From Tubulanus polymorphus (Eukaryota; Animalia; Nemertea): a DNA stretch of 64,000 nt. The DNA lies in contig NC_134027.1 in NCBI RefSeq assembly GCF_964204645.1, forward strand, positions 13,300,485-13,364,484, in the 5' to 3' direction. The notes beneath the pieces are model-generated. The model made no database searches, was not told the DNA's origin, and saw nothing but the letters and a program-made list of their open reading frames with translations. The position numbers and the translations under genes are program-made. Positions 205 through 64,000 of this stretch are shown piece by piece (within the stretch, counting starts at the first letter, position 1; each line of letters starts with the position of its first letter).

Positions 205-362
205 TGAAATCACAATTGAATAGTGTAAATTATTAGCCTGGGATTGACTAGTCTATGAGCTGGGAGTGTATTTGGACAAATTTAACCCACAAAATGAATC
301 ATCATTTGCCATTTTATGAAAAGTTGACAGGCTGGCCATAGTGCCCCTTGGGGCTCTTGGAA

Positions 363-4877: not shown

Positions 4878-5160
4878 CCCAGCTGGCAAATTACCGACAA
4901 ACAACGTCGGATTTTGGTTGATGTTTGATTATGTTAGTAACATGACATTTATCTTACGTCGGATTGACGTCGCACAGTTCGACCAGGATAATTGGTTGTG
5001 ACGTGACATCAATTCGACGTCGGTTCTTTGACGTATCAAGTATTGTGTAAGAAGAGTATTAATACGTCAATACAATAATGAATATTTGTAATTTTTAAGA
5101 TGTCTTTCTATGGAATAACGATTCTGACCTCGAAATTGTATTGAAGAATAATAATGTATT

Positions 5161-17856: not shown

Positions 17857-18272
17857 TCAAAAACCAACAGTCAGTTTATTTGAGATAAGTATAGAAACGA
17901 CTCCTTCCATAGTCTTTTGTATAGTGTATGAATACTAATTATCAAAAACCAAAGACAGTTTATTTCAGATGAGTATAGAAACAACCCCTACTATAGATTA
18001 AGCATTTTTAAAGTGTATAACTATTTGTCATAAAAAACCAAATCAGTGTATTTGACATGAGTATAGAAACGACTCATACTATAGATTAAGCTTTTTATAG
18101 TGTATAACTATAGGCCTAAGTCATCAAAAACGAAAATCAGTCTATGTGAGATGAGTATAGAAACGACTCCTATTATAGATTAAGCTTTTTTATAGTGTAT
18201 AAATATTAGTTATTAAAAACCAAAATCAGTTTATTTGAGATGAGTATAGAAACGACTACTACTATCGATTAA

Positions 18273-25356: not shown

Positions 25357-25417
25357 GATATGTAAATAGAAATTAATCTTTTTCATTTTCATATTTTTCT
25401 TTAAGCTTATTACGTTC

Positions 25418-26433
25418 TTACCCTATAATCCTTTTCAGTGTCATTGGTATAGTTCCTAAATGATTCCCGAATTTATATTTATAGAATGTTGCTCTTGAAA
25501 ATATTTTTGGAATATAATTTTCGATTTCAGTTTTAGATGGATGTTTATTTAAAAATTCTCTAAAATCATCATATTTAAGTTCAAATAAGTTCATTGCATA
25601 AGTTACATTTGATTTAAAGTTATTTAACTTTTTCAATATGGTAACTATATCATTACCCGAGAAATAATCTATAAATGTTTTTCTAAACCACCGATAGTCT
25701 AATATATTCATTTTATTAAATTTCGGCTTTACAATTAATGGATTTTCTATTACATTATCTGTACCTATATGTTTAATTGAATATTTATGATTCAATTGTT
25801 TGTCATGTATTACATATTCTTTACATTTTTCACACCAAGACTTAAATACCTGTATTGCATGGGCTGAATCATTTCCACCTTTGGTTTTGATTTATAATGT
25901 TTTGCCGAATTAGCCTTTGTTATACATTCATTACAGAAGGCACAATAATTTTGATCCTCTTTGCATTTATCTTTATATATATTAGCATATGTTTTTACTA
26001 ATTGTAAAATATGTTCATCTTTTTTGATGTGCAATAAATAATCATTATTATTATCAAAATCTTCTTCACAATACATACATCTGATGTTATCTTCTATTTT
26101 AGATTCAATATTATCTTCTATTTTAGTTTCATTATTAGCTTCTATTTCAGTATCAATATTTTCTTCTTTTTTTGTTTCAATATTATCTTCTATTTTTGTT
26201 TCAATATTCTTATTATTAGATGTAGAAGGTATATTATCTATATTATCATTATTATTATCTTTTTTAGTTATATCATAATTACGTTCAATTGAATATTCTT
26301 TGTATTGATTTAATTCATTTAATAAGATTGTTCAAATATATTCATTTATTCTTTTATAAGGTATTACATAATACAAATCATCATTGATTTCTTTATCAGC
26401 TTTGATTCTTTCATATAACTTACCTTCATCCAT
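25418..26433 (-). pseudogene. Polinton-like element copy A: decayed zinc-finger/hypothetical genes downstream of the capsid gene
   Basis: Very AT-rich, intronless. Starts at TAAATG (ATG at 26433, MDEGKLY); CMYC..H and CAFCNEC..HYKSK zinc-finger-like motifs; stops and frameshifts. Confidence 0.55.
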
Positions 26434-26465
26434 TTATTATATTAATTTTTATTTAAACTAAAATT

Positions 26466-27450
26466 TTAATACATAACACTATTAAATTGAGAATTAACAA
26501 TATTTAATTGCGCGTCAGATATAATATAAATGTGCATTTTGAAATTTAAGCTTCCTTTTTTCTTTGCCATGAATAATTGTATTCCATCTTAAGTGTTCTG
26601 TAATTTTTTCCCAGAACCATGTAATAAGTTATCCTCTGTTGTTCTAAAATCTAACCATAATGCGTATTTATTACCGGTATAATAATCAATTTGATTAATA
26701 TTACAATCTTCAGATGGTTTCATTTTTTCAAATGTTTTCTAATTTCTGGCCCCTGATCAATCATTCTCATTCCTTGACAGAATATCTTATTAGCTATGCC
26801 TTCAATTGTTATTTCTACTTTTGTTATTTCAGGATTATAATACTTATCAACCCGTATTGCACCATTTATATCCCATATCTTTAACAACGCTAGATAATAC
26901 AATTTCATTAACAGGAGCAAATGTTATTTCAAATATAATATCTTCTTGAATTGCATATTTATATAAAGGTGCATTATTATTTATCAATTCAAAATCTAAT
27001 GGAATTTTATATTTACTACCATAAATCTTTTTTATCAAATTATCTGCGGTACGAGTTACTATTGTGTCATTAGCTCCTGATCTTAATTTATTATGGTTTT
27101 CTGATTGGATGCCTTGAAATATCATATTATTTCTATTTTCTTTTGTTAACCATAAATCTTTATAATGCATTAATAAATTATAATCATCTAATGAAAAAAC
27201 TGTTTCTGGTCCAATCTTTATGGTTAATTTTTTAATCAAATATCTTCAAACATTATCAACAACATGATTATTATCATGGCCAGTTACTTTTATATCGGCT
27301 GATAAATAAATACTATTTGGAACATAAAATCGTATTTTATGTTAATCGAGGGATTCTCATATATTAAGTTTCATCGGGATTAATATTAGAAGGATTATGA
27401 GTAATTATATGATGAGATCTCTCTGCTTGAATAGCATTCGATATAAAACC
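26466..27450 (-). pseudogene. Polinton/adintovirus-like major capsid protein remnant with an internal deletion
   Basis: HNPSNINP, LIKKLTIKIG..VFSLDDY..YKDLW, KYKIPLDFE, FEITFA, YNPEITKVEITIEG, KYALWLDFRTTEDNLLHGSG, SDAQLNI..SVMY*. These resemble motifs of the capsid family in invertebrate Polinton-like elements (recognised from memory). Confidence 0.75.
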
Positions 27451-27572
27451 AACAATCGATGCAATAACTCCAGGTAAAACTGCAGCAGATTTTTTAGATA
27501 GTTCCCATAAATATTTTTCATTCTTTTTAACTAATACTAATGATGATTCAACTCCAATTATTTTGTTTTAAG

Positions 27573-28966
27573 ATTATGCTAAGAAAAGCAATTCAGATGA
27601 AATCATGGCTCGACTGGAGGAACTGAAGAAAAAATGACTCAATAAGGTATAGGAATAAAGCCTGCCTAGAAAAATGTGCATCTAAAGGTTTTAAGTGAAG
27701 AGTATTTATCCAGAGAAAGTCGCTTTATATATATTTTCATTATTATGCACTGTCTTTTAGGACACGAAGGCCGGAACTGTCTGTAAAGCAAAGAAATTAA
27801 AAACAACCACCTCTTCTGATTCTGGGACAAAGAAGGTAGAGTTGGGGTGGAAGACTTTCGATCCATCAAAAAAAAACCTTATAAACAGAAAAGAGTGTTG
27901 GTGGAGCACGAAGCTGGGCATTTGGAAAAGCATCTACTTCAGATGTTATTTTAGCAAGATGTATTCAGCTGTACGATATTGAATCATCGATGTTTCAGTG
28001 CAATCTAGCTACTCCATCTGTAGGATACTGGATGATACATTTAGACTCGGAGAGTATATCGAAAAAGAAGGTCTCACTAATGCCCCATGCCGCTTAATTC
28101 TTTATACGCGTGAACAAAGGTGAGCAAATGGATTGAGTTTTTGTATATATTGATAAATTTGTATTGTCCAAATTTGAGCTTGATTTATACTTTCTTAAGA
28201 TATAAACATGCGGCTTTTAAGATGTTTCATTTTCATTTTTTCATGACAACCCATTTTAATCAAGCACAGCGGAGCTATATCAGCTGATAGACTGCGGGTA
28301 TATTTTTTCTCTCCACCATCTTGAAATGTGAAGACCATCAGTCAATTTAGAAAAAAAGCTATATCATTTGTTTTGTAGTAAAAAACCAGATCATTTGTAT
28401 TTTTAGTAAAAAACCAGATGATGAAGAACCAGATGTTCAAATAGCTGATCATGATGAAAACGTTGGTGAACAAAGCAATACAGAAATAAAAGAGCGGAAC
28501 AAGATATGACATGTACCTACATCAGTGTAGATATCGATGATGTAACTTATTATTTGCAGAATGAGAAAGACAAGGAAACAGAGCCTGTATATGTTGAAAA
28601 CGACGTAAAAACATTTGAAAATTATGATAAAAATAAATATGTCCCCGTGTATAGTGAAGTGTCCCATGTTCACTATTTTCTTCAAAATCATGCGAAAAAC
28701 AGTGCCGAAAAAAGTTAGCCCATGGGAAGAGTTTGTACTGCTTACCCATCAGGAGCTGCATGAATTGAACACCTTTAAATTAGGATTAGACATACGTACC
28801 CAACATTGTTCTGGTTACACCACCTTTAATATACTGTACATTTACTCTGCAGTTAATTAACTTGTATGACGATGTCACTATCCTTTGCGAGAAAGTCTGG
28901 AAGCTAAAGCCCTCTGCCAAGCAACGATATGATGAATGGGTGGCAGATCAGAAGTCGAAATTGTAG
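27573..28966 (+). pseudogene. Spliced, decayed accessory gene convergent with the IS3EU-like transposase
   Basis: Exon-like blocks with AG/GT signals encode ARLEELKKK, TKKVELGWKTFD..YKQKR..GGARS and LGEYIEKEGL..RLILYT, resembling the partner gene found beside this transposase family. Frameshifted. Confidence 0.5.
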
Positions 28967-29679: not shown

Positions 29680-32252
29680 CAATCACTTAATAGACATATC
29701 TCAAGGTATAAAACGGCTATATCGTCCGAACAGCCATATGTATTTAATGGTGGTCCAGCAATAGCAAAACACTAATCGAATATCTCCCTGTCCAGTGGAA
29801 ACTTATAGTCAATTGTATCGTATAGCACAGGCATTTTGTAGATCACACCGGGTATGCCAGCTGGACAACCCATATGCCTAGTTTCCCTAATCTTGTGGTT
29901 ATTCCAAATGTTTACGACGTCATTAGCCTCTTTTCTTAGTAATTCTGTAAAACAAAACCGAAACAGGGTGCCCTGTATTTCATCTGCAGGATCATACAAC
30001 TGAACTTCCACCAAATCTTGAAACAAGAAAATTAATTTTAGAAAATTATTTGACGCCTGGGAAAAAATGTAGAATTTCTGGGCTAAGCTAATGTGGAATT
30101 GCAAATTTGAAATCGAAGTTTTAAGAAATTTGGGGAATGATGAGATTTGGCGATTGGGTAGATAATACAGGTCTTCGACTCTAGTAGTGGTTTAAATTTT
30201 TTTATTGAAAATTCTCAATAATTGATCGCGAACTTGCGACCGACTTCATTTACTTATGCCTCTAAGCTGGTCTGCAACTTCATTGCCTCCATGGATGAAG
30301 AAAGAGCTCTTCTGATGTCTGCTTCATTATGACTTCGAGCATATCGTGTGGCCTAGCCAGCCGGCCCGGTCCCCGGGCCCGGGCCACGCGTTTGGCTGTC
30401 ACTCGATTTCCTAGAGTCTTGAGTCTGGGTGGGTTGAAGTAGACATTGTCATTTAAAATAACATGCTTATGTTGTTCTGTATGAATTACCCGTGTGTCAT
30501 GTATGTTGTATTAATTTATTTTAAAATTTGTATTTATTGAATTTGGGAATTTTATCCCGGAATTTCAATGTAATAAGGATCAATAAAGAATTGAATTGAA
30601 TTGTCACCTAATACACATGCCATCAGAGGACACGGAGCCGTATATGACAGCTATGCTATTATAAATTGCTAATCTCACGAAACTTGCATACTCCTAATAT
30701 CAAACATATTTTCACAAACGATTGAATATTGAAATTATGTGTTTACACATTTTCATATTAACCGCTTGTAGCCGCTGATGAAATTTACGCCGGCCCTACA
30801 CACATCGTAGATAGCTTCGTCATTCCACCGGCATGCCCACGTCAGGGTCTGACTTTTATATCAGACTTCCGCATCGTGTATACATCCGCCATTTAACCGA
30901 ATAATCCGATTTACTTATCATTTCTATTTATGCCTGCCGCTTCTGATATAATCATACATCCTTTACTATTACAATACGTCTTCTAATGATATTCAATGCA
31001 ATATAACATTTCGACGTTCAAATATAGGTCATTATATAATCACAGGAAGCCATTCTACATCTATGTCAATAATATTTTGCCAGATAGCTTGTTTGTGTAC
31101 ACATAAACCTGTGACGTTTTGCACATCGATTTACGGCTGTCGTTTGTAAAATGACGCTGAATGGTTAGCATTGTTTAGGTTTCATAATGGTAACGTTTTA
31201 TAAGGCGTCAAAAAATCCTTGCCAATATTCCGTAAAATGTTTATATAGGAAACACCGCCACGATTCTATTTTCTGATTATGCGGCGATTTACCAACAATA
31301 TATGGCTTGGCTGACACTGCATCGTCATGACCCAAACGCAGCAATGAGTGCAGCATATTATTTTCAGTGCCTGGGTTACATCGCACTAACTTCGGAACGC
31401 CATTGATTGCATTAACAAAGTTAAGATATGACAGGGCGACGGTTCCACTATCTCTGTTCGAATTACCGAGTGTGAGCCATAACACTCGTCGGGTAAATCC
31501 ATCTATGCATCCATGTATGCAAAAACCATAAAACCGTAGTTTATCGTATTGGTCCACGTGAATAACGTAATGGGGACGCCACATCATTTTAATTCCCATC
31601 AAACGAGCGCAGCCCTCCAATTCTTGACTTACAGCACTGATAATGTCGTTAAGTGGAGCTTCTGGACCTCGACGCCTAAGATGCATTGCTTTCAATCGCC
31701 TCTGAACCTGGCGAACGCTAAAAATCATGTAACAAAACATTAGGCATTTTTCTAATTACTCGAAGCACGTATTTTATAAAGAAGTGGAGGGCGGAGAGTG
31801 AAAAAAAGGAAAATAAGAATTTCTTTCTTCGTGGCGTTTTATGGAAGGGATCAGGAAAAAATACAAATAAAATTATTTTAATACTGGAGCATTTTCCACA
31901 TAAAACCTGGGGAGGACAGCAGAAAAAAATAAAGCAGAGTGAAAATTCTGATTAATTTAATTCAAATGATGGGAGAAATGGAAAAAAACTGTTTTTTTTT
32001 GCAAATCAATAGATTGAAAATTAAGATGAACATAACTTTTACAAGTTACAGACTAGATTGAAAATCAAGACGGACATCAAAAAATAATTCTCTTTTTCAT
32101 TGAAAAATTGTGGTGAAAACACGAAGGCCTTTATGCTTAATACTGAATACTTACGACGTCAACTTCCCTTGAAGTGATAGTTTGCATGTTGTTTCAGATG
32201 CGTTTAAGCCCTGCCGAAAAGCCTCCTCAATATTTGCATCAACTATAATCAT
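29680..32252 (-). pseudogene. IS3EU-like (integrase-core DDE) transposase pseudogene; two exons, interrupted by an insertion
   Basis: Exon 1 32252-32155 (MIIVDANIEEAFRQG) is phase-compatible with exon 2 from 31717. Motifs HVDQYDKL.FYGFCIHGCIDGFTRRVLWL, RCNPGTEN, GKSPHNQKIESW, WNNHKIR, GIPGVIY. Reading YWQGFF|QDLVE resumes across the 30021-31212 insertion. Confidence 0.8.
30021..31212 (-). mobile_element. Helentron-associated (HINE-like) element inserted into the IS3EU transposase
   Basis: On the minus strand it begins tttgacgcct and ends ggcgtcaaa + hairpin aattttctaaaatt + cttgtt. Inserted in a T-run with no TSD; removal restores GGA TTT TTT CAA. Confidence 0.7.
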
Positions 32253-34039: not shown

Positions 34040-35539
34040 CTTTTCTATCTTGATCAGTTAATTCTTTATTCAACGATTCAAAATCCCCATAAATTACAAA
34101 TGGCACTATATTTCAATTTATAATCTTTTTTCGTTGGCATTATCAATTATCAAAAATCTGTATTATCACATAATTCTTTATGTTTTAATAATGCATTCTC
34201 GCTCATAAATTTAGATAAACATTTTCTACATAGATATATTTTACGATGGTGATCACTTTCTGTTCTAAAGAATAAATCTATTTGTTTTAACCAAATAAGA
34301 TGTTCATTTTCATCTTTTTTGTAATATAACAAATCTATAACATTTTCATCATCATAATATTCTGTTAAATATAAAGCTTCTAATGTATAATCTTTAATAT
34401 TTTCACCTTTTGTCTCTAGTAATTGCATTAATTCGAATACATTTATTTCTAAATTATTAACTTTTTCTATTTTAGGGATCATCTTTATAGTTACTGGATA
34501 TTGATCAATTTTATATAATGTTTCATATTTCCGATAATCTGTTATTCTACAAACATTTTCCTTGGTTGGGTGTAAACAACTAATAATTGGCCGTAGAAAA
34601 CATTTATTATCTTCATTTTGAACATTCATTACTGCTTTTGTTGTAAATGGTAATTCAATATGAGATGATGCTTTAATGTCCTTTTCTATTGTAAAGTTTG
34701 AATCATTTGTAAACATTTTATTACTTTTAGATGCTTTATTCCTTTTTGTATTATAAATATTTAAATCTAAAGATATAACTTCATTCAATGATAAGCCAGA
34801 ACCCTCAAAATATCTTTCTTCAATATGACGTTTAAATTCATTAAATATTTTATCTAATTTCTCTTTTATTTGTGTTTTTGAAATTATTTCTTCAGAATGT
34901 CTTTGAATTCTATACTCCATTTTTACTTCTGATTTTATAAAACTTACTTTTCCAGAAATACAAATTTTTGGTTATTCAACATCTGTTACAAAGTCCATCA
35001 TTTTTTCAATTATTTCAATATATTTGCTATAATCTTCTATTGTTGATCCTTTTAAAAATCTAAAAATCTAAATATAATAGCTGCCGGTCCAATTCTACTA
35101 CGTAATGATTCTAAAATTTCAATTATTTCTAGAGTATTAATATAATTTCTAACATTTTCCATGTAAGGTTTATTTGAAATAGATTTAGTTATTGAAGCTG
35201 GTTTTTTTACTAGTTGAGGTTTATCATCAAAATATTTGTTATTCTGTTCCTAAAAATTTTTTATTTAAATTTTGTGTTTTTGTGATTCGAGATGTCTTTT
35301 ATAATTCCTTTTTACTATAAATTCATTACAAACTTCACATTTTATTTCGTCTTTTTTCATATCATTTATTTGAATTTGAATTTTCTGGTGTTTCAAAATC
35401 CATGACATTTTTTTTTTGATTTGCAGTTTTTTCATGTCGTGCTTTATGAGATTTATCAATGTATTTTTTGCAATGTGTACAATAATATTGATTTTCATTA
35501 ACATCATTTTTTTTCTGTTTGGTGTTCACTGTCCCCCAT
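34040..35539 (-). pseudogene. polB: Polinton-like copy A: N-terminal part of protein-primed DNA polymerase B, truncated after Exo I
   Basis: N-terminal zinc fingers (YYCTHC, CEVC..RHLESQKH), ASSHIELP..KAVMNVQNEDNKCF, LEINVF, YLCRKCL..KHKELC, then PFVIYGDFES near 34075-34110. Paralog at 56190-57023. Confidence 0.85.
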
Positions 35540-35887
35540 TTATCAGGGGAAAAAATTACTTGTGGTGATGAGTGCTGTGACGCCCTCTCGCCCTCTGATC
35601 TGAAACCCACATTTTCCATGTTTTACTCATATACGTATAACTTATGTCATCGTCTACAAATGAATCACCAAAACCATAGAAAGATAATTTTTCAAACGTA
35701 AACCCGCGAACTATCATTTTTATTTCTCGCTCAATATATTTTGTACAAATATCATTACAATCTAGAACGAGGCTCCGGCCGCATCAGCACGATAATTTAT
35801 TTCAAAAACACACTTTAAGATCGCCTAAACCAAGAAGTGATACTTTTACAAAATCTTCATATTTGGAGTCTTAAAAATAAAAACCTG

Positions 35888-47300: not shown

Positions 47301-48202
47301 GCTTATAAAGCTGTCTGCTCAGACGAAATTTTCAAAAAAAAATCATCATTTTTGCCAATAAAATAGATAATTGTGATTGATCGTTGCAAGTCAGAACCAG
47401 TTAATCACTAATTAACATGCATTTTAATAAATCAGGTTCCTCCTATACAGTGAACTTACTTTAACCTAGTGAGGCTACTAGCCTATGTAGGCCTATGTAT
47501 ATGCGTAGGCCTAACATCCGGACTGATTTGTCGTAGGCCTATTGAATAACAACCCTCCTAAATATCGTAAATTTTGTTTTGAAGTTCAATCCAATGAGTC
47601 CGTTAATAACCGCAACATTTATACTGTGTTTGTTTGAGACATTAAATGTCAGTACCGGTAGGCCTAAAGCCTTAAGGTCGCGTAAAACTTGATAAACACT
47701 TCAAGCGACACAGCAAACGATCTCCTTTCCCCCACAGCGAACGCTTACCCCGAATGTCAAGTGTGAGTCCAACATACGGATAGGAGTGTGTTATATACTT
47801 GTATTTAGTAAATACCTTCCTCCCTCCCTCCATGAAAAAGCATATCGTTTTCCATACATGGCTCTTGTCATGTTGGCTAGATGGAGATAGGACAGTCCCC
47901 GCATACCAGGGCATTGTATCTTCATTAATTCATAATAAACATTGCAACAACTGTGCAAAACACTTTACGTAATTCTCTGGGTAGCATAGCTACTCGGATA
48001 AAGGCATCACGCAAAAAGTAAAATCTTGCTTATGACAGAAACGTTTCTTTAAAATATTTCTAGAATATGCCAACAGAAGAATACCGCATGTTATACGAGC
48101 AGCTATGAATCATTGGGAGAAACATACTTGCATCAAATTTGAAGAACAACGGTACAATATGCCAAGGATAAGGGATAGATTGATTGTAAAGCGCGGAGAA
48201 TG
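38302..48202 (+). CDS. Host astacin-family (M12A) secreted metalloprotease, first four exons; gene probably continues beyond the window
   Basis: Exons 38302-38358, 38455-38485, 38641-38859, 48064-48202, GT-AG with consistent phases. Signal peptide MFCTVLVYSSLTLTVILLT; propeptide GFDIM; furin site RSKR; WPNGIVPY; IRAAMNHWEKHTCIKF. The HExxH exon was not seen. Confidence 0.85.
39350..39935 (+). repeat. Degenerate ~31-bp tandem repeat with a larger internal duplication (astacin intron)
   Basis: Repeats of gggtcKggctatgaggagattcactg; ggatctggct..accttcgtgtca..ggagcgcc at about 39445 recurs near 39692. Confidence 0.6.
40578..40730 (+). mobile_element. 5' part of a HINE-like element, same family as 13912
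   Basis: ttttagcccacttgggactt..gtcccagcgg..ctattgcgttca..(gtcc)n..ccagttattttgggaa aligns with 13912-14040. Confidence 0.75.
43235..45310. repeat. CpG-rich unclassified composite repeat region
   Basis: GNRA-type hairpins gcgccgaaggcgc (about 43265) and gggcgccggaggcgccc (about 44648); duplicated blocks cccttagcaac..gaattt and gcaaaaccta..ttttacaatgtagaatt; several GGTTCGAATCC-like motifs. Confidence 0.45.
46065..46303 (+). mobile_element. CR1/L2-type LINE reverse-transcriptase fragment
   Basis: DFDKAFDKVQH..LLTK, KWLSSYLS, VTQGSTLSRLLFIVLTNDI, with frameshifts. Confidence 0.75.
46304..46910. repeat. Array of gttcgaacgaaaa-like repeats starting with CACTG (possible CMC-type non-autonomous element)
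   Basis: Many ttcga/gaacgaaaa motifs; cactgtaa at the left edge; right end uncertain. Confidence 0.45.
46917..47234. mobile_element. Harbinger-type MITE
   Basis: TAA|agccggacgtaggtcggc ... gccgacctacgcccgcct|TAA; internal gtcgca repeats. Confidence 0.8.
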
Positions 48203-48799
48203 GTGAGCAATGATAATTAGTTTTCTGTTTTTAAATTCATTGATTTTATAACACTGTAATTAGGGTTTCGGGATTTGCAGGGACCCATATTTTTATTTCG
48301 TTTCCTACTACAAATTACTATCGACGCAACACCAATTTCAAAAAGGACTAGATAACGTTCTATTCGAACACCATAGTGTCCTGAAACATTTACTGGTTCT
48401 ATTGCAAAGTTAGTAATTAGTTGTGGATTGTATTCCAAAGTTGTTTTTTTTGCAAAGTTTGTAATGGAAGGTGTACCCATCCACATTCACCCCAAATATA
48501 GGCAAACCCTAACCAACCCTAGACAAGTGTGGCCTAATCACCTACACCCAACGCTGCCTGCCACACACAACCATTCAAAAACATTTCACATACGCCCATA
48601 ATCGCTTTTACCCACCCAACATATCAAACATCGGAATGGCCGATTGGCGGCAATATATGTTTGCAAACATTTTAAATAATTTTATTCTTTCAATGATATC
48701 TCAGAATTTGGTTTTATCAACAAATCTTTAAAAAAAACTTTTAATCTATTAATATTATAATCATATAATCATATGATAACATTATAATCATATGATTTT

Positions 48800-49782
48800 A
48801 ATAATAATTTAATTTCTTCTTTCCGTAATTCTATGTTATATTCTAAATCATCTTTTTCTTTTTCTAAATATGCATTTCTTTTTTTAAATTCAATTTCTTC
48901 AATAACTTTATTATCTCAATCTAATTTTAATTGTTCTATTTCTTTAATTTTATCAGTTCTATCTTTTTCTAAAGTTCTAATTTTAAAATCTCTTATACTT
49001 TTATCATGCGAAATTTTATCAGATGCAAGACTTATACTAATAATTTCTCTAATTGCTTTATCAGAAAATATATTTAAATCTTCTAATTCTTGATCTGTTG
49101 CATCTAGTAACCCATTTGGTAAAAGTTTTTCAATTGGAACTTTATTTGATTTAAGTTTACTAGTTTTGGAAGTTATATTCTGTTCAGAAGTTGTTTCTGG
49201 TTCTAAATTATTATTGATTGTTTCAAATAATTCGTTAATTCTTTGTTTAAATACTCTTTTATTTTGATTTATTTCTGTGTCGGTAACATTTTCTATTTCA
49301 TTACTATTACTTATTCTTTTAATTCTAGATGATTCTAAATTACTCAAAGTTGATTCTGCCAATATTTTGTTTTGATCTTTATAAGTGATATTAATATAAT
49401 AATCATCTTTCAAATGATAGTCATATTCACCATCTAAAGATTTTAATTCTTGTATTAAATATCTGGCACCTCTATCGTTTATATTATATCCAGATTTTTC
49501 AAATATAGGTTAAAAATTATTTATATATTCATTATATTCTAAATTCTGTCTTACTAAATCTGGATTTTCATTTTCAATATTTATTCCCCGTCCCGCTCTT
49601 CTATCAAAATCGCCTGTTGTTATTATATTATCATTAAAACCACTATCTGCTAAATTATTATCATATTCTGGCTCATTACCGTCATTAAAACTTGTTTAAT
49701 TAAAATCAGGCGGTTGTTCTTCAGTTATGCTGGGTTCATCAAAAGTATCTATTCCAATATCTTCTCCAACTTCTACATCCAT
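48800..49782 (-). pseudogene. Polinton-like hypothetical protein (acidic N-terminus, coiled coil)
   Basis: ATG at 49782 (MDVEVGEDIGIDTFDEP..TSFND), continuing into ORF 48916-49413; internal stops. Confidence 0.55.
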
Positions 49783-49804
49783 TAATATGATAAAAAAATT
49801 AAAA

Positions 49805-51195
49805 TTAAAAATAAAATATTCCTCCTATTACAATTCCTATACAAGTAATAGCTAATTTAGCATTTTCATGTGATTTATTATTATTACTTTTAATTATTTC
49901 ATGTTGAATATTATCAGTTTTTATATTTTCTGTAGTATTGTAATCTTTTATTTTAGAATCATTATCCAAACTAATATTTTTAGTTTTAGTTTCTGTTGAT
50001 TGAATATGTTTTTTAATTTTTTCACCTTCCATTTGTTTTGGAGCAGTAATAATCTGTTTATTTATATCATTTAATCCAAACCTGTTATTTATTGTTGCAG
50101 TTTTAATTAGATTATAATAACCAATTATATTTCCCATCTTTAATATTAAATCATCAGAAATAATAAATAAATTAGGTCCTATACAATAATTTAATCTCAC
50201 ATGAGATTTATCTAAATAATTTTGGTACCTGACTATATTTTCTGGAATCGATCTATTTTTATCATTATGAATTGAACCTTCAAATGAAACTTTTAATTGT
50301 TTTTGTGTATCAAATGATGTATTTAAATTTCCAATTATTGGGGATCTTGTTTCAACTTGAGCGCCTAGTATACATATCAAATAAAATCTAATTGATTGAT
50401 TTATTCTTTGTATACCAGCTTTAGTAAATCCTACACTATTTTCTAAAATAAAATAAACCCAACCATTATTATTGTCTTGTTTTAAATTATCATAAAATTT
50501 CGGAAATTTATTGAAATTTAATGTTTCTAAATCCAAAGTTTCTATTTTACCAATATTAATTTACCAAATTTAATTTATGATTATAGATATAAAAACTATT
50601 AGATGGTATGGGAAGTGCACAATGTTCTACAATTTTTTTAGGGCAAGGAAGTGATCTTATTGTTCCAATTTTTGTTCTAAAATCAGAATTATTTATATCT
50701 ATATTAAATTCATTACAACTTTTATAAAACTTTGATAAATTAATATTATTATCTAATTCTTTAAAATACCTAGATCCTGGTAAAGGGGTCTCTAATTCAT
50801 TTAATATTAATCTTATTTGAAAGTATGTATGGAATCTAAATAAACTTTGAATTAATTTATATTTACAATTATTCAATTGATCATTCCAACTTATTCTACA
50901 ACCTGTTGTTGCACAATAAACAGCAAAATTTAATTGGTTCTGCCAATATTTTCATATTAGATTTTAATAACCATTGTTTTTCATCTTTCAATTTTTTAAA
51001 ATTAATTAAATATACATGAAATATATTTTCCATCTTTGCATTAAAATTATTAGTTTCAGTAACATAAATATCTAAATTAATTAATGAATCTAAAACTTCA
51101 TTTTTGTATGAAATATCTTTATAAAAATCTATTGCAGGAATATTATATCTAATTGATTTGTTATATTGAAAAGCTTTTGGAAAACTAATTGCCGT
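49805..51195 (-). pseudogene. Conserved Polinton-like protein of unknown function with C-terminal hydrophobic anchor
   Basis: YWQNQLNFAVYCATTGC, FRFHTYFQIRLIL, GFTKAGIQRINQSIR..CILGAQVETRS, ending AITCIGIVIGGIFYF. Start codon mutated to ACG; frameshifts. Confidence 0.7.
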
Positions 51196-51678
51196 TTATA
51201 TAATAAAAAAATTAATAATTTATTAATTATTTTAACAATTTATCCTGCTCTTGTTAATTCTGCAATTCTTATATTACCATTTAAACTTATTATATAATCT
51301 AGTGTATTTTTTAATTTATTAATTTCTTATATATTAGATTCTATTTTTTCTTTATTACTTTTTATATTCAACTTTGAACTTATTCCGGTTAAAACACTTG
51401 ATGATAATCCTAACACGCCACTTGATATAGCTCAAGGAGTTAATGGACTGAATATTGCTAGAAATGTTATTACAGAACTTATTGTAACTGAACTACTAAT
51501 TATAAAATAATATATAATTTTACTAATTTCTAAATATTTTTTCTTTTTAATTTTCAAATCATTTTCGAATTCTAATATTTGTTTTTCCAAATATAATTTT
51601 AATTTAGTTTTATTTATATCATGCGGAATAATATCAATATTATCAACTTTATCATCAATTTATTTAGAAAAGAAATTA

Positions 51679-52111
51679 CTAATTAGTAAATTTATAAGCA
51701 ACAAATAATACAATAACTGTTCCATCTAAAATCCAAATTATTTCATATTTTTGTTGTTCACTACTTGGTGTATAATAAGCTGATAATTTAGGTTTATAAA
51801 GATGTAATTTTTCTTATATAGATGTAATTTGTTACTGCGTTGTATAAACTCATAGCTTCATCGACTGATTGCATATCTCTATGTGTAATTTTCTGATTAT
51901 TTAATTCTTTATTAATGTAATCCATGTAACTTTGTCTCTTTTCTCTGTAACCTTCTGCAGCTTTATTGTATTTCTCTTATGCTAAGTTATGTCTTCTTTG
52001 TTCTGCTAACGAACTATTTTTATCAATATGCTTAAATAAATACCCACCACCTGTATATGCTAAAGTGTTAACAATTGCCGATCCTATAATAGTTATAATT
52101 GCAGATGCCAT
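51679..52111 (-). pseudogene. Small conserved Polinton-like protein with hydrophobic ends
   Basis: MASAIITIIGSAIVNTLAYTGGGYLF...EQRRHNLA*...PKLSAYYTPS; contains an internal stop. Confidence 0.65.
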
Positions 52112-52112
52112 T

Positions 52113-52358
52113 CTAATTTAGTAAAGAAATTACGCATTTATATAGGAGGAATATATTTTTGTTTTCCAAATAATCAATAATTAAATTAGATAAAGTAACT
52201 GCTAATGTTAATTTTAGAATATCATTGATATCAAATCTATCAACATTAACACTTCCCGTTTTAAATACTTTTTTTAATACCATTGTATAACCAACAGTTC
52301 CAACTGATAGTAAGGCACCATTATATAATCCATTTATTATCCACTTATTATCACTCAT
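52113..52358 (-). CDS. Small hydrophobic Polinton-like protein
   Basis: MSDNKWIINGLYNGALLSVGTVGYTMVLKKVFK..FDINDILKL..DYLENKNI, with a TAAATG start. Confidence 0.65.
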   Translation of the reverse strand: MSDNKWIINGLYNGALLSVGTVGYTMVLKKVFKTGSVNVDRFDINDILKLTLAVTLSNLIIDYLENKNIFLLYKCVISLLN

Positions 52359-52733
52359 TTATTAATCAAAAAAAATACCATCTTCAAAATATTTAGTTAT
52401 CTTATTTATGATTAATTCAACATTTATATTATTATTAGTTTCATTTTCATATATTTCAGTTATTATTTTTTTAATATCATTAATAATAAAATCTTCATCT
52501 AATTCATAAAATCTTAAAGAATCTCTTATTAAATCAGTTATCTTTTCTATATTAAAAGTTTCTTTATTTATTGTTGTTTCATATTCAAATGTTGTTTCAT
52601 TAGTAAATGCAATATTTATGAGTTATTGCATCATTAATATCAAATTTCATTTCTTTCTCACGTTTGAAATCAAATCCAAAACATATACTCGGTCCAACAG
52701 TTATATTCATTTATATAATGCAAAAATTACTCT

Positions 52734-53486
52734 CTACATCTTATAACTAATTCATAAATTACAGGAAAACTATTCAAATCAATTAAGTATCCATTATGAT
52801 TTCTAATTTCTAACTTATAATTATTAAATTTTGGAATACAAGGTTTGAAATCACATTCAGCTAAATTATAATTTATTTGCGTTTAAAATTGTTTAACATT
52901 TCTTAATGGTAAAATATTTAATATACTAGAATTACAAATTGTATCGCTTAGTTGCTTCGAAAGTTTTTACAGGGTCAATTTAATTGCAATAAATATAAAA
53001 GTTTGTAAAAGGCATTAAGTTTGGTGTAGATTAGGCATTACGTATCCTTACATCTGGGTTAATTCCTAACAGTTTAGCTATAGGTTTTTTAACCACAAAT
53101 TGATGTTCATCATTAGCTAACTTTATTCTTACTTTATTATTGATATCACTTTTTAAAGATTTAATTCCAAATCCAACAGACCCTCCTCCCATTTTTAAAC
53201 GAGCTCTTTTATTAATTTCTTGCGCGAATGTTTCTAAATTATATAATCCAGGATTTAAAAATAGATGATACCATTTGTTCAAATTTCTAGCATGAACTAA
53301 AAAAGCTAAATGATCAAGACTTTTATTCGTTATATTGTAAAAAGAGTTACATAAACTTACATTTACTAATTTTAAATCTACACAATTTTTAGATTATCTA
53401 TCTAATTGTACTAGTAAATTATGTGATTTATAATTTGTAAGTTTTCTAGAATCAACAAATATTCTATATTCTTTTAATTCACCCAT
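52734..53486 (-). pseudogene. Minor capsid (penton-like) protein
   Basis: NSFYNI, LNPGLYNL, IAKLLGI, FYIYCN, ILNILP, LEIRNHNGYLIDLNSFPVIYELVI*; this is the pattern of Polinton single-jelly-roll pentons. Contains stops and frameshifts. Confidence 0.7.
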
Positions 53487-53553
53487 TATTTATAACGCAA
53501 AAAAATTACCTCGAACCATTAAAGTTAATTCCAATAACATTTTTCCTAAATAA

Positions 53554-54859
53554 ATGGATGAGAAGGTAGGATGTGAAATTTGTGGTGAACTTCAAAGAAA
53601 AAGTAATATGGCTCGACGTATGAAAAACCATGATAAAAATTATAAAACTCCTAAAATAAACTGCCCAAATTGTAATAAGTTATTCTCAAGAAATTATGTT
53701 AAAACAAATTCAGAGAAGTGTAAAATTAATGACTCAACGGTTAATGTTGATAGTGACGAAAGTAATAATAATTCTGTTAAAGTTGAACCTGAAATTATTT
53801 GGAAAAGACCTTACTTATTCTATGACAAGAATAATATAAAAGATCATTTCTGTGAGCCTCGTCGAATATATTTTAGCCCTGAAAATATAGAAGATTGGGA
53901 AAATCATCAATTTCGTAAAGCACATATAGATAAAATTTCTAATAAATTTGAAGCAGAATTCAATGAAAGAAAAAATAATATATTAGAAAACATAAAATAT
54001 GAGAAAACGTTACCAGATAATGAGGAAACACTTGAAAAGTTGGAAAAACAATATAATCAATTAGTAAGAAAAACATATTATTGCAAATATTGTAAATTGA
54101 TTATTACAACAAGTAATTCAAATCTACATAATAAAACAATAAAACATAAAGAAAACGTAAGAAAATACCAAGAATTTAATGAAGATCTATTACCAAGATA
54201 TGATAGAAAAAAAATGTATTTATGTGTACTCAAGACAAGAAGATTCTGTGATATTTTGTAATGAATGTGGATGGCAAAGAAATTTATGGGGTGATGAAAA
54301 AACTAGAGATATTCTTATAGAACCAAAATTAAAATATCTAGATGAAATTTTTAAGATATTTTCTATGGAAGATCATACACCAGAATATAAGCAATGGCTT
54401 GAAAAAATGAAAATGATAGAAAATAAAAATGGTGAAATAACTAAGAGAGATATAATAAAAACAATTATTCCATCAACATGTAACACAAAAGAAAAGAAAA
54501 TTTATTTATGTTTATTATTTAACGATTATTATAAAAAACCTAAATTAACAAAAGAAGATATGGAAAATATAAAGGATACATTCACAAACATGTTAAAATT
54601 TTATGTGGATAATAAAATAACAGATTCAATTAATTATGAATTCTTTTTAAATAGGATTGTAAATTTTTTAAACGTCGATATTATAATTCCATTTGATGAA
54701 TTAACAAACAAAAAGAAACAAAGAGAGCGGGGTGAAATGTGGTACAATATAGAACTCTATTTAAATGAGAAAAATGAAATGAAAGAACCTAAACAATTAA
54801 ATGAATATGAAGAAACCAATAGTGATTTTGAGTATGATGATATTGATTTTCTGTTTTAA
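53554..54859 (+). pseudogene. Zinc-finger protein fused to a VLTF3-like (poxvirus A2L-like) domain, split by a frameshift near the A8 run 54207-54214
   Basis: CEIC, CPNC and CKYC..H..H fingers; then IFCNECG, PKLTKEDMENIKDTF, INYEFFLNRI, LTNKKKQRERGEMWYNI, resembling the VLTF3 C-terminal pattern. Confidence 0.55.
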
Positions 54860-55312
54860 TGACCGTAAGGTAATGTTTTTATTCCATCACCCAAAATATA
54901 TCTTTTCTCATCGAACGGATTTAAGCTAGTTTTTTCAACTTCATTAATGTACATCTCGTGATCTTCTGATCTTAAACAATTCATTTTATGTTTCATTACA
55001 ATTGAGTTATATAAACACTTTTATATGATCTTGAAATTCTATCTGTTTATCAACCACATGTTTTGTTATTCCTTTTAACTTTTTAGCTTCATGATCTTTT
55101 GTTCTATAACTATACATTTTACTTATCATCCCAACAAATTCAATCATTTCATCGCCCCCTAATTCATCTTTAAATTTACCATGAATTTTTTTATTATCAT
55201 TGCTAAATAGTTCCTGATCTTTTGGATAATTGCTTAAGTCAAAATGATGTTTGAATGTTTTTAAGTCTTTTGTTATGTCATTTGTCTTGATTTTTAGTAT
55301 GTATGCATCCGT
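54856..55312 (-). pseudogene. polB: pPolB C-terminal extein (copy B)
   Basis: TDAYIL, FDLSNYP, NKKIHGKFKDE, EFVGMISKMYSY, KKLKGI, KTSLNPFDEKRYILGDGIKTLPYGH*. Confidence 0.92.
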
Positions 55313-56113
55313 ATTAAGCAAATTAATGGAAATCCACAGTTAAATGTTCCATCTTCAGTTGATAAATCATAAACATAATCTGATGGGTTAGATGTTTCAA
55401 ATAAATCTTTAACTTCTTCAGTTATTTCTTTTTCTGTATGCCTTAGATTAAAACAATTTAGTTTAGATCTAATCAATCCAATATTCATATTAAAACCTAA
55501 TGAATTACATAATAGATTCAATCCTGATATACCAATTTTTCCTTTTTCTGCAAATGTTATTGCTGGAGAACTCGTAAATTTTCGTACCATCTGCTGCGTA
55601 GAATCCAATGGAGATTTTCTAAGATTATATTCTGCATTTAATACATAATCTGGCACTATCTTTTCTTAAGTTGAAGTATTACTTTTCACTATTGCATGAA
55701 TATATAATTCATTATTATATTTTGTAGCAAAATCTTTAGGAATATTTACAAATATTCTATAAACCGCTGATGATTTCATACGATCCACGATTCTAAATAT
55801 TTTATGTGAATAAACTTCTTCACATTATTTCTTTATTCTTTCTAATAATTTCAAATCTTGATTGCATAAAAACCAACAATATTGAGTGCGACTAACATAA
55901 TTACACACAACTGCTGAACCATCACCCATGAAAAATCCTTTGATAAAATATTCGTTTTCTTCTAATGTTTCAGGTTCTATATTATAAATATTATCAATTA
56001 TTTCATCAAATGACATATGATTCATTCTTTGGAAAAACCTTTTATGTAATAATTCTTCTCCAATTTTTATATCAGTTGGTTTTATTTTATCACCATTATG
56101 TTTTCTAATTAAA
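55313..56113 (-). mobile_element. Intein remnant with LAGLIDADG homing endonuclease inserted at pPolB motif C (D|TDS)
   Basis: Block F/G DYVYDLSTEDGTFNCGFPLI(x)LN ends in Asn (55313-55315) immediately before Thr (55310-55312). LAGLIDADG motif FIKGFFMGDGS; KGKIGISGL..LCNSLGF; post-block-B segment LIR..NGDKIKPTDIKIGEELLH. The N-terminal splice junction is deleted. Confidence 0.85.
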
Positions 56114-56189
56114 CCAACTGATATAAAAATTGGAGAAGAATTATTACATAAAAGGTTTTTCCAAAGAATGAATCATATGTCATTTTTAA

Positions 56190-57023
56190 ACATTGTATTA
56201 CTTTTTGATGCTTTATTCCTTTTTGTTTTATAAATATTCAAATCTAAAAATATAATTTCATTCAATGTTAAACCAGAACACTCAAAATATCTTTCTTCAA
56301 TATGACGTTTAAATTCATTAAATATTTTTTCTAATTTCTCTTTTATTTGTGTTTTTGAAATTATTTCTTCAGAGTGTGTTTAAATATTATAATCCATTTT
56401 TTTTTCTTATATTACAAAACTTACTTTCCCAGAGATACTAATGTTTGGATATTCAACATCTGTAATAAAGTCCATTACTTTTTCCATTATTTCAATAAAT
56501 TTACTATAATCTTCTATTGTTGCTCCTTTAAAAAATCTAAATACAATAGCTGCAGGCCCAATTTTACTACGTAATGTTTCTAAAATTTCAATTGTATCTT
56601 TTATTTCTAGTGAATCAATATAATTTCTAACATTTTCTATATAAGGTTTATTTGAAATAGATTTAGTTTTTGAAACTGGTTTTTTTACTTGTTGAGGTTT
56701 ATCATCAAGATAATCTGTTCCTAAAACATTATTACTTAAATTTTGTTTGTGTTTTTGCGATTCGAGATGTCTTTTATAATTCCTTTTTGCTATAAATTCA
56801 TTACAAACCACATTTTATTTCATCCACATTCATATTTTCTAATTGTTCTTTTCTTTCATTGGAATTTTCTGGAGTTTCAAAATCTATAACATTTTTTTTA
56901 ATGATTTGCAGTTTTTTCATGTCGTGCTTTATGAGATTTATCAATGTATTTTTTACAATATGTACAATAATATTGATTTTCATTAACATCAATTTTTTCT
57001 GTATGTTGTTCACTCTCTCCCAT
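56190..57023 (-). pseudogene. polB: pPolB N-terminal fragment (copy B), paralog of 34700-35539
   Basis: Colinear high similarity with copy A (YYCTYCKKYIDKSHKARHEK, RHLESQKHK, ISGKVSF, FNEFKRHIEERYFE). Confidence 0.85.
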
Positions 57024-57249
57024 TTATTAGAAAAAAAATTACTTGTGGTGATGAGTGGAGTGTCGCCCTCTCGCTCTCTGATCTGAAACCCACATTTACC
57101 AATTACTAGAATGGTGCACCTTTAAGCCACGATTTTTCAGATCAGGTTATAACCATAACTACTACTATTCAAGGGTAATCGTACGGTTCGTTTTATTTAA
57201 AACTACTGTTGATGCTGTGACAACTGCCTCCTCTCAGATAATTATAGAA

Positions 57250-59905
57250 AATACATGAATATTATTTGATGACGGCTCACAAATGTCATTCATAACCAAA
57301 TCATTAGTTCATCAATTACAATTAAAGACGAAGAGACGAGAATTTTTGAACTTGTCTGGTTTTGGTGCTAGATCATCAGGATTCAAAGAAGTTGATATTG
57401 TTTCTTTGAATGTTTATTTCTGTCGACAAAATAAACCTATGTCAATCCCAGTTACATCGTTTCTAGGATTCTTGAGTTCAAGGTTCTAACATTAGCACAT
57501 AGTGTGAACGGTGGTTCAAATTCTTTCAATGTGGCGTTATTAGTTGGTTCAGATTTTTACTACCACTTCGTATATAAATCCAATGTTCTGAATCTGGCCT
57601 GGTTGCTGTAAGCACCAAATTAGGCTATGCTGTGACCGGTCCGTGGTTGGCTATACCTGGTAGCGACGTCCATATGTTGAGTGTAATTGCGGAACCAAAC
57701 TTTTTCCTGACTTACAGAAGTTTTTGGGCTTTGGAAAATGTGGGTTTTCAACCAAACAATGACTATTCTAAAAAGTGATTTCTCGATTAGTATTGTGATA
57801 CCCATATATCTAAGGGCTATGTATTTATTTGGCTAAATTACCATGGAAACCAAATCACGGATCACTACCAAGCAACTATGGTATTGCTTCCTGGTGGTCT
57901 CTTGCACATAGTTTTTCTCCGGAATTACGTATTAGATACAATGATATCTTTCAATACCAATTAGATAAGGACATTATCGAGAAAATAGACGATCCCCGAA
58001 AGTTTTTGGCAAGGTTCACTCTATACCACATCACGCAGTGTTTCTGCAATCCGCTACTACGCAGATTAGGATTGTCTAATTGTAGTTCTCGTTCATTATC
58101 AAATCCAGTTTCATTGAATGATTGTTTAGATAGCGGACCTCCTTTATTGAATGGCGTAACCTCAATTTTGATGCTTTTTAGACTTTTCCGATACGGTGTC
58201 TTTAATGAAATAGAGAAAGCGTTTCTCCATGTCGGGCTGGACATGTTGTGTTTTTATGGTGTCTCCACCAATTTTATGATTGCTGTTTCCATCAGTGTGT
58301 TTCTTCACCAGTGTTGTGTTGGCGTAATCTCTACCCGTGATGTAGTGAGGGATCTGTCTTAGGGCTGGATCTTCAGTCCTCGTTCTTGACTATCTTCCAA
58401 GGCTCCCGTATATAACTTAACGACTTCTTAAATTATATATCCGTTTATCATCTCTTGACTAGATGTATACTATCTCTTCCTGGAGCTCTGTTCTCTTAAG
58501 CTCTAAAAACTTCTAACTTTCTTAAACCCTTTTTGAACCTTTCTTTAACAACTATAAATGCTCCCTTTTTATACCATTTTCTCTTTAGTAACGTGTGCAG
58601 GCCCTCTTCCACACATGGTTTGGAATTCGTGGATTGTGACGTATTCCTACGTCACAACATTCCTCCAATCCATGTATGGGTGATGACGTATCAGCACATT
58701 TCACAATTATCTAAATATTTTTTTTTGCACTCACCAGAGTCCATGGCCCACCATATTAGGTTTTCCTACGTAGACACATACGTCACTTCCTGACTTTTTA
58801 TTTATATTACTTCTATTTATGTTTATGTTTGACGTACGAATCCACGCATGTTGTCTGGTAACTGCAGCACTGGCCATGAACACCAGCTTCCGTACATTAC
58901 TTGTTGGTATAGTTTAACTGCTGATGACTGAAACCTACTAATATGTTCCCTAAAAGCTTGTTGATATAATTCATAAAGTCTCCACAATAGACCCCTGCGA
59001 CAGGGATGTAACCAGGTTTTTGGCTCAGCGATCACACCGACTCGGAGAGTCCTTTAAACTGTTTTCGTTTTAGGCGTGTCCTGTTCGGTGCATGTTGTTG
59101 TATGTTTATGTCCATTTCACTTATTCACCATTTACGAAATTACGTTGGTGAATTTGCTGATCAGATATTGCGCGATATATATAATGTAAGTTTTAGCATC
59201 CAGAGCGAATGTGATGTAGTTAAGTTTTATCACGAGTGTCGTGGTTTCAAATCGAAAGCTATTTTCAATTTCAGATGCTGGGCTTCGAATTGTGCGGAAT
59301 GGGAAAATCGTGCAATGTCTGATCAGGCAGCCGAAAGTTCAAATTGCATCAAGAATCTAGGCTTGTTATGGGATGTGAACGGGGACCATCTCAAATTTCC
59401 AGATAATTCAGTTTTATTGGGAAAAGCGAACTATCCTCCATGTAGCTAGCAGTATTTACGACCCTCTAGGGCTACTATCTTTTGAAACTGTTCGATCCAA
59501 AATTTTATTGCAGGATATATGGAAACAATCTTTTGATTGGGATGAGTTGTTACCAGCAAATATTTGTTTAGAATGGGGTTCAATTGCTAACATTCGAATA
59601 TTCCGGAATTGCATGTCTATTCTGACACGAGTTCAAGGGCTTACGGGGCAGTCTGTTATTTTAAATCAGGTTCGGAGTATTCTTTGGTCATCATGTCGAA
59701 GTCACGGGTAGCTCCAGTTCGAATTCTAACAATCCCTAAACTCGAACCTATGGCCGCAACTGTGGCTGCGCGTTTGGTTAACCACGTTCAATCGACCACA
59801 TCAGTGGCACTTAAAAGAGTACTGAACGTACGTTTTTGGACAGATAGTATGATTGTCCTTGGGTGGCTTACTTGTGACAAGACTTTACCTGTGACAAGAC
59901 TTTAA
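57250..59905 (+). mobile_element. BEL/Pao LTR retrotransposon pol remnant (protease, RT, RNase H)
   Basis: LFDDGSQMSFIT, LVGSDFY, KLPWK..LPSNY, SLNDCLDSGP, IEKAFLHVGL, FRFRRVLFG, WASN, LGLLWD, YDPLG, DWDE, HVYSDTSSRAYGAV, MSKSRVAP..TIPKLE, FWTDSMIVLGWL. Confidence 0.9.
58243..58990 (-). mobile_element. Insertion within the BEL RT, containing a decayed LINE-like segment
   Basis: Separates FLHVGL from D.CDRDVTRF; the minus strand reads RAPGRDSI...FKKSL, like the CR1 pre-RT KAPGPD motif. Confidence 0.45.
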
Positions 59906-63228: not shown

Positions 63229-63244
63229 AAGAGGGTTTTCACGA

Positions 63245-63720
63245 GAGCAGCAAGATCACGAAATGTATATTAGTGAAGTTGAAAAAACTAGTTTATATTC
63301 CTTTGATGATAAGCGATTTATATTGCATGATGGAATAAAAACATTACTTTATGGTCATTAATTAAATAATGCTAATCTTTTCTTTACTTATTCTATTTCT
63401 ATATGATTATGTTTTATAAAATAATCACGATTTTCTAGATTACTTAATTGTAAATATTAAGTACTCATATGTAAATTATTATAGTTTTCTGGGTTGCTAT
63501 TCTCTAAATTTTCATTGAACTTTCTTGTTTTTTCATCACCCCATGAAGTTTTTTTGATAACCTCATTCATTACAAAATATCGTAGAACTATCTTGGAATA
63601 AATTATTATGAATACATCTTGGACATTTATGTATATCATATTTTCTATTAGATGTGAGTCAAGTTTTTGATATTTGCTCACTTTTTTACGTTGTTTTTTT
63701 TATTTATTAAGTAGATTTTA
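63245..63720 (+). mobile_element. Polinton-like copy C fragment: pPolB C-terminus (+, stop 63359-63361) tail-to-tail with a ZnF/VLTF3-like paralog (-)
   Basis: QDHEMYISEVEKTSLYSFDDKRFILHDGIKTLLYGH*; the minus strand reads KCPRC..IFCNE..WGDEKTR, homologous to 54210-54310. Confidence 0.8.
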
Positions 63721-64000
63721 ATTACTTGCTGTAATAACCAACGTCCAATATTTACAATAATATGATTTTTGGTTTACCTATGTTATGGCTGTTGGTTTGC
63801 AGTCTGCCAATAGTATGTTAAATCGTGGCACAAAATTTAGTGGTAATACTTACGGCCGTTAAGCTTCGAACGGCCGATGCAATATTTTCGAGAAAAACGC
63901 GAAGAACATCGAAAACTCTTCGCTTTCTATAAGTAACTTGTGTTGACCTATATTTGTGTGTCGACACTTATATAAGGAATAGGATGAAAATGACGGGAGG

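Follow-up and report, generated by a model that had tools for sequence, protein, structure and literature searches.

The 64,000-nucleotide stretch analysed here (Tubulanus polymorphus, contig NC_134027.1, positions 13,300,485 to 13,364,484 of the forward strand; hereafter the window, numbered from its first letter) contains at about 48,770–57,100 a dead, truncated copy of a Polinton-type endogenous virus in an animal genome. Its gene for a family B DNA polymerase of the protein-primed type (pPolB) holds the remains of a canonical intein of the pol-c allele, the allele that splits the PolB of Mimivirus, and we consider this intein in a pPolB within an animal genome, for which no prior report was found in the literature searched, to be the main novelty of the study. 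The same element has a gene for a VLTF3-like late transcription factor and a recurrent motif at its gene starts. The path suggested for the intein, from a giant-virus-type PolB to a pPolB and on to a second pPolB class, in many animal-genome copies, would amount to physical evidence that Polintons and nucleocytoviruses once occupied the same cells and swapped DNA, and the start motif together with the VLTF3-like factor makes it testable whether animal Polintons are autonomous or dependent on a helper.

The translation of 56172–55297, read with X at its two stops, was used as the intein query and found 16 longer proteins. The best of these, P0002 (54% identity, E 1e-81), is an intact pPolB of 1,693 residues in which Pfam recognizes DNA_pol_B_2, Intein_splicing and LAGLIDADG_3 (PF14528). 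Positions 56103–55321 correspond to P0002 residues 1274–1534 (again with 54% identity) and are followed by the C-extein at 55315–54859. The splice junctions of P0002, YGD/S...N/TDS (junctions are marked by slashes), are those of the Mimivirus PolB (P0059), whose intein site YGD/TDS is known as pol-c (PMC549080). The Mimivirus intein has the same site, Ser1, terminal Asn, Thr+1 and LAGLIDADG endonuclease (PMC549080) and, over its whole length, shares 39% identity with the intein of P0002; it sits in a Pol-delta-like giant-virus PolB, whereas the inteins described here sit in a protein-primed Polinton PolB and form a clade of their own. The motif C insertion YxD/TDS is found in P0002, P0020–22 and L070, and the window copy retains the C-terminal junction N/TD across a frameshift. 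The weakest match to the window intein was P0017, a type II topoisomerase whose own LAGLIDADG intein is related.

The window intein itself is decayed. It has lost its N-terminal ~90 residues, and with them Ser/Cys1 and the block B TxxH motif that are present in five relatives (TIGR01445 is recognized in three of the four intact ones). Two in-frame stops remain in it, and frameshifts lie at and beyond the C-terminal junction. The first LAGLIDADG motif (GFFMGDG) is retained and the second is decayed; in a read-through translation Pfam gives only a sub-threshold match to Intein_splicing (E 0.014).

A search with the P0002 intein returned 499 proteins. Among the 119 non-self matches listed, 116 have the DNA_pol_B domain (PF00136), the Mimivirus PolB among them, and three are the pPolBs P0020–22, and nearly all of the relatives listed share the junctions YGD/S...N/TDS. 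The same C-terminal intein motif occurs in 11 viral contigs, in all of which PolB is Mimivirus-like and nine of which belong to named giant-virus bins. An intein-end pattern gave 58 matches in the metagenome contigs, of which 54 were due to chance and four were inteins, one of them in a pPolB (L070, with two stops). This gives six pPolB inteins, four intact and two broken (L070 and the window copy).

Phylogenetic trees, from which five of 135 proteins are omitted because they gave no intein to the extraction pattern, group these inteins together. FastTree (131 rows, five pPolB inteins) recovers one clade with support of 0.97, and IQ-TREE, run on 47 of the 143 rows, those with the closest BLAST matches, recovers all six as one clade (100/100). 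As judged from these sequences, the clade lies among the giant-virus-type PolB inteins, and its sister group is not settled by the tree. Forcing the pPolB inteins to be sister to that of Mimivirus costs 19.7 log-likelihood units (p-AU 0.14), so that this placement is neither preferred nor rejected. A specific transfer from Mimivirus was considered as the source of the intein and dropped, as the tree gives no resolved sister. These results bear out the claim of an earlier note on this DNA, which had placed a PolB intein at the Mimivirus site.

The exteins of P0020 and P0002 barely align (26% over 91 residues, E 0.96), whereas their inteins are 46% identical over 362 residues (E 2e-99). The intein therefore appears to have passed from one pPolB class to another, and horizontal transfer is the best reading of this. 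Reads from the host suggest that its distribution also varies within the species: depth is 450–620 on the C-extein and 140–195 on the adjacent intein, and 94 reads cease to fit within ten bases of the intein/C-extein junction. For both reasons occupied and empty alleles are likely to coexist in the host species, although faster divergence of the intein could be an alternative or added cause of its lower depth. No joint that skips the intein was found among the read matches listed.

The VLTF3-like factor and the gene starts

The open reading frames at 53554–54261 and 54161/54179–54859 are frameshifted halves of one gene, because an intact relative, P0145 (46% identity, E 2e-41), spans both; a second relative is P0146. 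Neither these two proteins nor the window frame matches Pfam Pox_VLTF3 (PF04947) at E 1, and a word-based search with the window frame found nothing. The protein was compared by HH-align with five giant-virus VLTF3s, a reference set fetched via PF04947 from seven of 19 records. The alignment (91.3%, E 9.6e-7) covers 186 columns and is collinear from the zinc ribbon through the C-terminal helix, and its score of 48.7 compares with a maximum of 22.6 in 254 shuffles. A structure model with a mean pLDDT of 60 was searched against BFVD with Foldseek, and 12 of the first 19 matches bear the name of a late transcription factor (as VLTF3 or as putative; the lowest E is 1e-3), with late factors of cowpox virus, two entomopoxviruses and a bat poxvirus at ranks 1, 2, 4 and 5. 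Comparison of the model with the PDB returned cyclin and TFIIB folds with middling Z scores of 5.9–6.8. On the evidence of profile alignment and modelled structure, the protein is confirmed as a divergent VLTF3 homologue; the factor proposed in the earlier note thus stands by these two routes and not by Pfam. No VLTF3-like match was found in eight intein-free relatives of the element (best E 0.04).

Nine gene starts were set from the reading frames, one of them without an ATG, and were compared with the 316 other ATGs of the same DNA. Exact TAAATG is present at four of the nine starts and at 14 of the 316 background positions (p 7e-4), and TAAAT within 12 bases at seven of nine compared with 21 of 316 (p 5e-7). 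Further upstream, GTAATTT precedes five of nine starts and two of 316 background ATGs (p 9e-8, for a motif picked after the data had been seen). All nine starts have a T-run ahead of them, and a T-run and TAAAT occur together at seven of nine starts as against three of 316. The motif is retained in a second, 86% identical copy of the 5' region. Vaccinia virus late promoters have a T-rich core followed after 5–7 bp by TAAAT(G/A) overlapping the start (PMC5294985), and the order of T-run and TAAAT in the element, as read from its sequence, matches that layout. The earlier report of TAAATG starts of the pox late type has therefore survived a test of significance.

In the eight intein-free relatives TAAATG is found at only three of 84 starts (p 0.001 for the difference from four of nine), and A is at −3 in 60 of the 84. 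Two relatives, L002 and L003, have a regular start motif of their own, in which AATTTT is followed by TAAA beside the ATG; promoters close to the ATG may thus be widespread in their Polinton group.

Mode of life of active ancestors

We tentatively put forward, at slightly less than even confidence, the reading that the genes of the element's active ancestors were transcribed, in a helper-dependent life, by a co-infecting, poxvirus-like helper whose RNA polymerase was directed by the VLTF3-like factor that the element itself encoded. An active element would enter the cell along with a cytoplasmic large DNA virus, whose RNA polymerase, aided by the VLTF3-like factor, would read all of its genes, the polymerase included. 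The T-run and TAAAT at the start codon would serve as promoters of the poxvirus late type. The motif is also found ahead of the genes for the polymerase and the factor; an outside source, namely the helper, would therefore be needed for the first round of transcription. The pPolB would first splice out its intein and then copy the element, with integration afterwards; intact inteins are predicted to splice by means of Ser1, the terminal Asn and Thr+1. As for its origin, the intein would have been gained by a pPolB a single time, through homing at YxDTDS, the sole motif common to both polymerases, from the PolB of a nucleocytovirus infecting the same cell, and would later have moved to the second pPolB class; a mixture of occupied and empty alleles would feed homing. 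Polinton-like viruses (PLVs) packaged with entomopoxviruses do exist in animals (PMC11296320).

The earlier note counted three independent links to large DNA viruses, a count that we revise. The promoter motif and the late factor, taken as one functional unit, point weakly to poxviruses and make a single link; the intein, which looks like one old gain common to the six pPolBs, makes another, and that link is to mimivirus-like viruses.

Several observations weigh against a helper-dependent life. The element is known from DNA sequence alone, and its traits do not name one helper, since the intein leads to mimivirus-like viruses and the motif to poxviruses. No genomic context of P0002 or P0145 was found in the viral, metagenome or prokaryote contigs; because the four intact intein-bearing pPolBs could not be placed in a DNA context, the co-occurrence of the three traits is seen in a single family only. 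Nine starts in one decayed copy are a small sample, the pPolB start of L070 is not TAAATG, and TAAAT occurs in ranavirus promoters too. In L002 and L003, which have no intein or VLTF3, TAAA adjoins the ATG at 14 of 15 and nine of 12 starts, respectively, so that the motif is in part common to Polintons in general. The structural matches of the late factor, at E 1e-3 or weaker and from a model with pLDDT 60, speak only weakly for poxviruses, and the rank of a match is not a phylogeny. With regard to the intein, four carriers of the Beta type are set apart by one branch from the seven relatives that have no intein (92/100 in an extein tree of 12 rows), and identities of 43–48% between inteins are close to the 38–46% between exteins, indicating similar divergence. 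The intein may therefore record one ancient contact only.

A possible alternative, in which we place limited confidence, is an autonomous nuclear Polinton, in which the VLTF3-like protein, with its cyclin/TFIIB fold, would recruit the host's RNA polymerase II to a promoter word private to the element and the intein would be an old souvenir of one co-infection. The PDB matches of the model agree with this. Mriyaviruses, moreover, keep VLTF3 without an RNA polymerase and are predicted to replicate in the nucleus (PMC11253617), so that VLTF3 alone is no proof of a cytoplasmic life. A helper would already have VLTF3, so a second copy would be superfluous, and a pPolB-related contig, L008, has its own TBP and TFIIB. 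Nuclear autonomy is harder to reconcile with a motif that heads both the polymerase gene and the factor's own gene and leaves no early class, or with a TAAAT that overlaps the start codon and puts T at −3, unlike most relatives. Mininucleoviruses, which replicate in the nucleus, have lost VLTF3 (PMC6960288, in its Table 1), a loss upon the move to the nucleus that speaks against this alternative. In L008, which is a pPolB contig filed in a giant-virus bin, the TBP (E 7e-14) and TFIIB (E 5e-11) genes are adjacent at 9876–11074 and stand beside capsid, protease and integrase-like genes.

The helper-dependent reading has a more far-reaching form, in which the animal Polinton family would be provirophages of a poxvirus-like cytoplasmic virus, with their own VLTF3 redirecting its late RNA polymerase, which they would use by way of the T-run and TAAAT promoter, and the giant-virus intein still homing among occupied and empty genomic copies. 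We regard this form as doubtful. If true, it would mean that a homing intein is alive in the germ line of a metazoan, and would supply a sequence rule by which to spot helper-dependent Polintons.

It is unlikely that the traits are unrelated, namely an AT-rich Polinton start context, a cargo gene and a selfish intein brought together by chance in a single mosaic element. The GC content of 23% and the mosaic nature of Polinton genomes (described in PMC11296320) would favour such a meeting, as would the fact that TAAA lies near the ATG both in the relatives (39 of 84 starts) and in giant-virus loci (41 of 137). Against it, GTAATTT and TAAAT are both enriched over background ATGs of the same DNA, and the motif has been retained in the second copy.

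An assembly artefact or a contaminating giant-virus fragment is very improbable and largely refuted: the low GC content and the best sequencing run, which holds only 26% of the sampled words, would allow it, but the polymerase is of the pPolB type and not the giant-virus type, contigs from run X1 cross both host junctions without any difference (47789–48730 and 57076–57395), raw DNA reads of a second study cover the whole element at a depth of 100–830 (145–210 on the intein and 7 on the host-exon bin), and the same window contains a second copy along with more fragments. The contigs across the borders and the high read depth together indicate a real multi-copy family.

Relation to known systems

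Already known are animal PLVs associated with helpers, animal Polintons with VLTF3 and pPolBs with endonuclease inserts. The element shares pPolB, penton and multi-copy integration in animals with animal Maverick/Polintons and adintoviruses (as described by Starrett et al. 2021, PMC8502044, and in the preprint of Bellas and Sommaruga, 10.64898/2026.06.19.733378), and relatives of the 15–20-kb type, L002 and L003, have a double-jelly-roll capsid. The word 'intein' is absent from the main texts of both of these reports, whereas here an intein lies in the pPolB. Unlike adintoviruses, the present copy has one end and no matches to major capsid, ATPase, integrase or protease, and is not classifiable by its capsid.

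Stephens et al. (2024, PMC11131425) have published a VLTF3 homologue in stony-coral polintoviruses and ascribed it to exchange with giant viruses, and VLTF3 has also been described in PLVs (10.64898/2026.06.19.733378). The main text of the coral study contains no promoter analysis or intein; the VLTF3-like protein reported here differs from the coral one in being too divergent for Pfam Pox_VLTF3 and in having extra zinc fingers. Animal PLVs were proposed as parasites of poxviruses, with gene exchange with the helper, by Barth et al. (2024, PMC11296320), whose main text mentions no promoter, VLTF or intein. For those PLVs the evidence is direct, as they were recovered from within occlusion bodies, whereas our element is known only as sequence.

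An endonuclease domain within a Polinton polymerase was described for the nematode pPolB2 (Jeong et al. 2023, PMC10748475; Krupovic et al. 2024, PMC11071308), and Krupovic et al. propose intein invasions as the origin of such inserts (PMC11071308). In the available text of these papers the inserts are HNH or VSR domains, with no Hint domain or motif C site described, whereas here a canonical LAGLIDADG intein family splits the catalytic motif. According to a review, inteins are absent from multicellular organisms (PMC5874633), and direct homing from one PolB to a distant one seemed implausible to Ogata, Raoult and Claverie (2005, PMC549080). Our literature search, which covered neither supplements, Repbase and InBase nor subscription papers, did not turn up any description of an intein with a Hint domain in the pPolB of a Polinton or PLV; none was found in the accessible text of PMC8502044, PMC12220804, PMC5718144 or 10.64898/2026.10.13.758929.

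The mavirus provirophage of Cafeteria is an integrating pPolB virus with a helper-type promoter ahead of its genes, and its reactivation has been shown. Its penton has the same fold as that of the Polinton relative L002. The mavirus motif is TCTA, as is the late motif of CroV (PMC5294985), and its host is a protist, whereas the motif here is TAAAT and the host an animal.

Gene map and genomic setting

The features of the element are listed in Table 1. Its GC content is 0.234, compared with 0.349 for the rest of the window, in agreement with the very low value noted earlier. The longest reading frame in it is of at most 251 codons, and Pfam, applied to 25 window fragments, named only zinc fingers. 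P0002 aligns with the window over residues 48–228, 1274–1534, 1537–1634 and 1638–1689, which gives a polymerase of the protein-primed PolB type, as in Polintoviricetes. The deletion of ~1,045 codons (P0002 residues 229–1273) has removed the polymerase core and the N-terminus of the intein. As the main copy is truncated and broken and cannot be switched on, its activity was rejected.

Table 1. Features of the element, with coordinates in the window
Feature	Coordinates	Strand	Evidence
Putative end of the element plus leader; polymerase gene start motif GTAATTT..TAAATG	57024..57107	-	86% match to second 5' copy
N-terminal part of pPolB (zinc fingers, terminal-protein region), several broken frames	56186..57023	-	tblastn to P0002 residues 48-228, 29%, E 7e-14; zf-U1 match
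Inverted copy of 56008-56086 bordering the deletion	56107..56185	.	79-nt arms, 99% complementary
Remains of LAGLIDADG intein, pol-c (Mimivirus-site) allele; two in-frame stops, frameshift near C-terminal end	55313..56103	-	54% to P0002 intein
pPolB C-extein, first residues Thr-Asp of motif C, one frameshift	54859..55312	-	56-58% to P0002 residues 1537-1689
VLTF3-like late transcription factor (putative), N-terminal zinc fingers, frameshifted, TAAATG start	53554..54859	+	Relatives P0145, P0146; HH-align; Foldseek
Minor capsid protein (penton), broken	52730..53486	-	Profile of 5 relatives; limit 52730 set by eye
Small broken gene, no function assigned; GTAATTT..TAAATG start	52365..52710	-	
81-aa open reading frame with hydrophobic stretches, no function assigned; TAAATG start	52113..52358	-	
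Small broken gene, no function assigned; GTAATTT..TAAAT ahead of ATG	51682..52111	-	
Small broken gene with hydrophobic stretch, no function assigned; GTAATTT..TAAAT ahead of ATG	51358..51655	-	
Broken gene of ~450 codons, C-terminal hydrophobic helix	49805..51195	-	No family match
Broken acidic, coiled-coil-like gene, no function assigned; left end of low-GC stretch	48772..49782	-	

The earlier note had also listed capsid genes. A penton fragment at 53381–53025 matches a profile of five relatives (iE 1e-6), identifying a minor capsid protein, and the penton of the relative L002 folds like that of mavirus (E 2e-9); the penton alignment gave no match to solved structures by sequence. That part of the claim stands, whereas no major capsid protein, ATPase, integrase or protease was matched by profile search in 48400–57300. 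The gene at 49.8–51.2 kb was tried as the major capsid and rejected, having no profile match and a terminal hydrophobic helix; no relatives of it were found in the viral contigs, and no genomic context in the viral, metagenome or prokaryote contigs. Elsewhere in the window, at 25400–27600, lies another low-GC fragment with zinc-finger reading frames and, at 27332–26976, a weak match to a Polinton major capsid (iE 0.0065), 22 kb away. This fragment is possibly the missing arm of the element's own family or of a related one.

Only one end of the element lies in the window, and no partner repeat was found for the right end by which terminal inverted repeats could be defined. The second 5' copy, at 34703–35618, matches the element at 86% up to about 57101 and has an identical start motif; the fragment that contains it (34047–35618) retains a part of pPolB, P0002 residues 124–432, that was deleted from the main copy. 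At 63239–63769 are short inverted pieces, 74–84% identical, that correspond to the 3' end of pPolB and to parts of the VLTF3-like gene.

To the left, 570 bases from the element, is an astacin/BMP1-like exon (48066–48203; Pfam Astacin, E 4e-5), and the element may lie inside an intron of this gene. To the right it directly abuts a decayed BEL/Pao retrotransposon (57100–59900). Its position between these two neighbours identifies the host as an animal. The window also contains two arrays of an 89-bp satellite-like repeat (296–4908 and 14888–18229), a transposase-like frame of 593 residues with a weak match to DUF4218 (7019–8797) and an integrase-core fragment at 31201–31755 (rva_4, E 5e-17).

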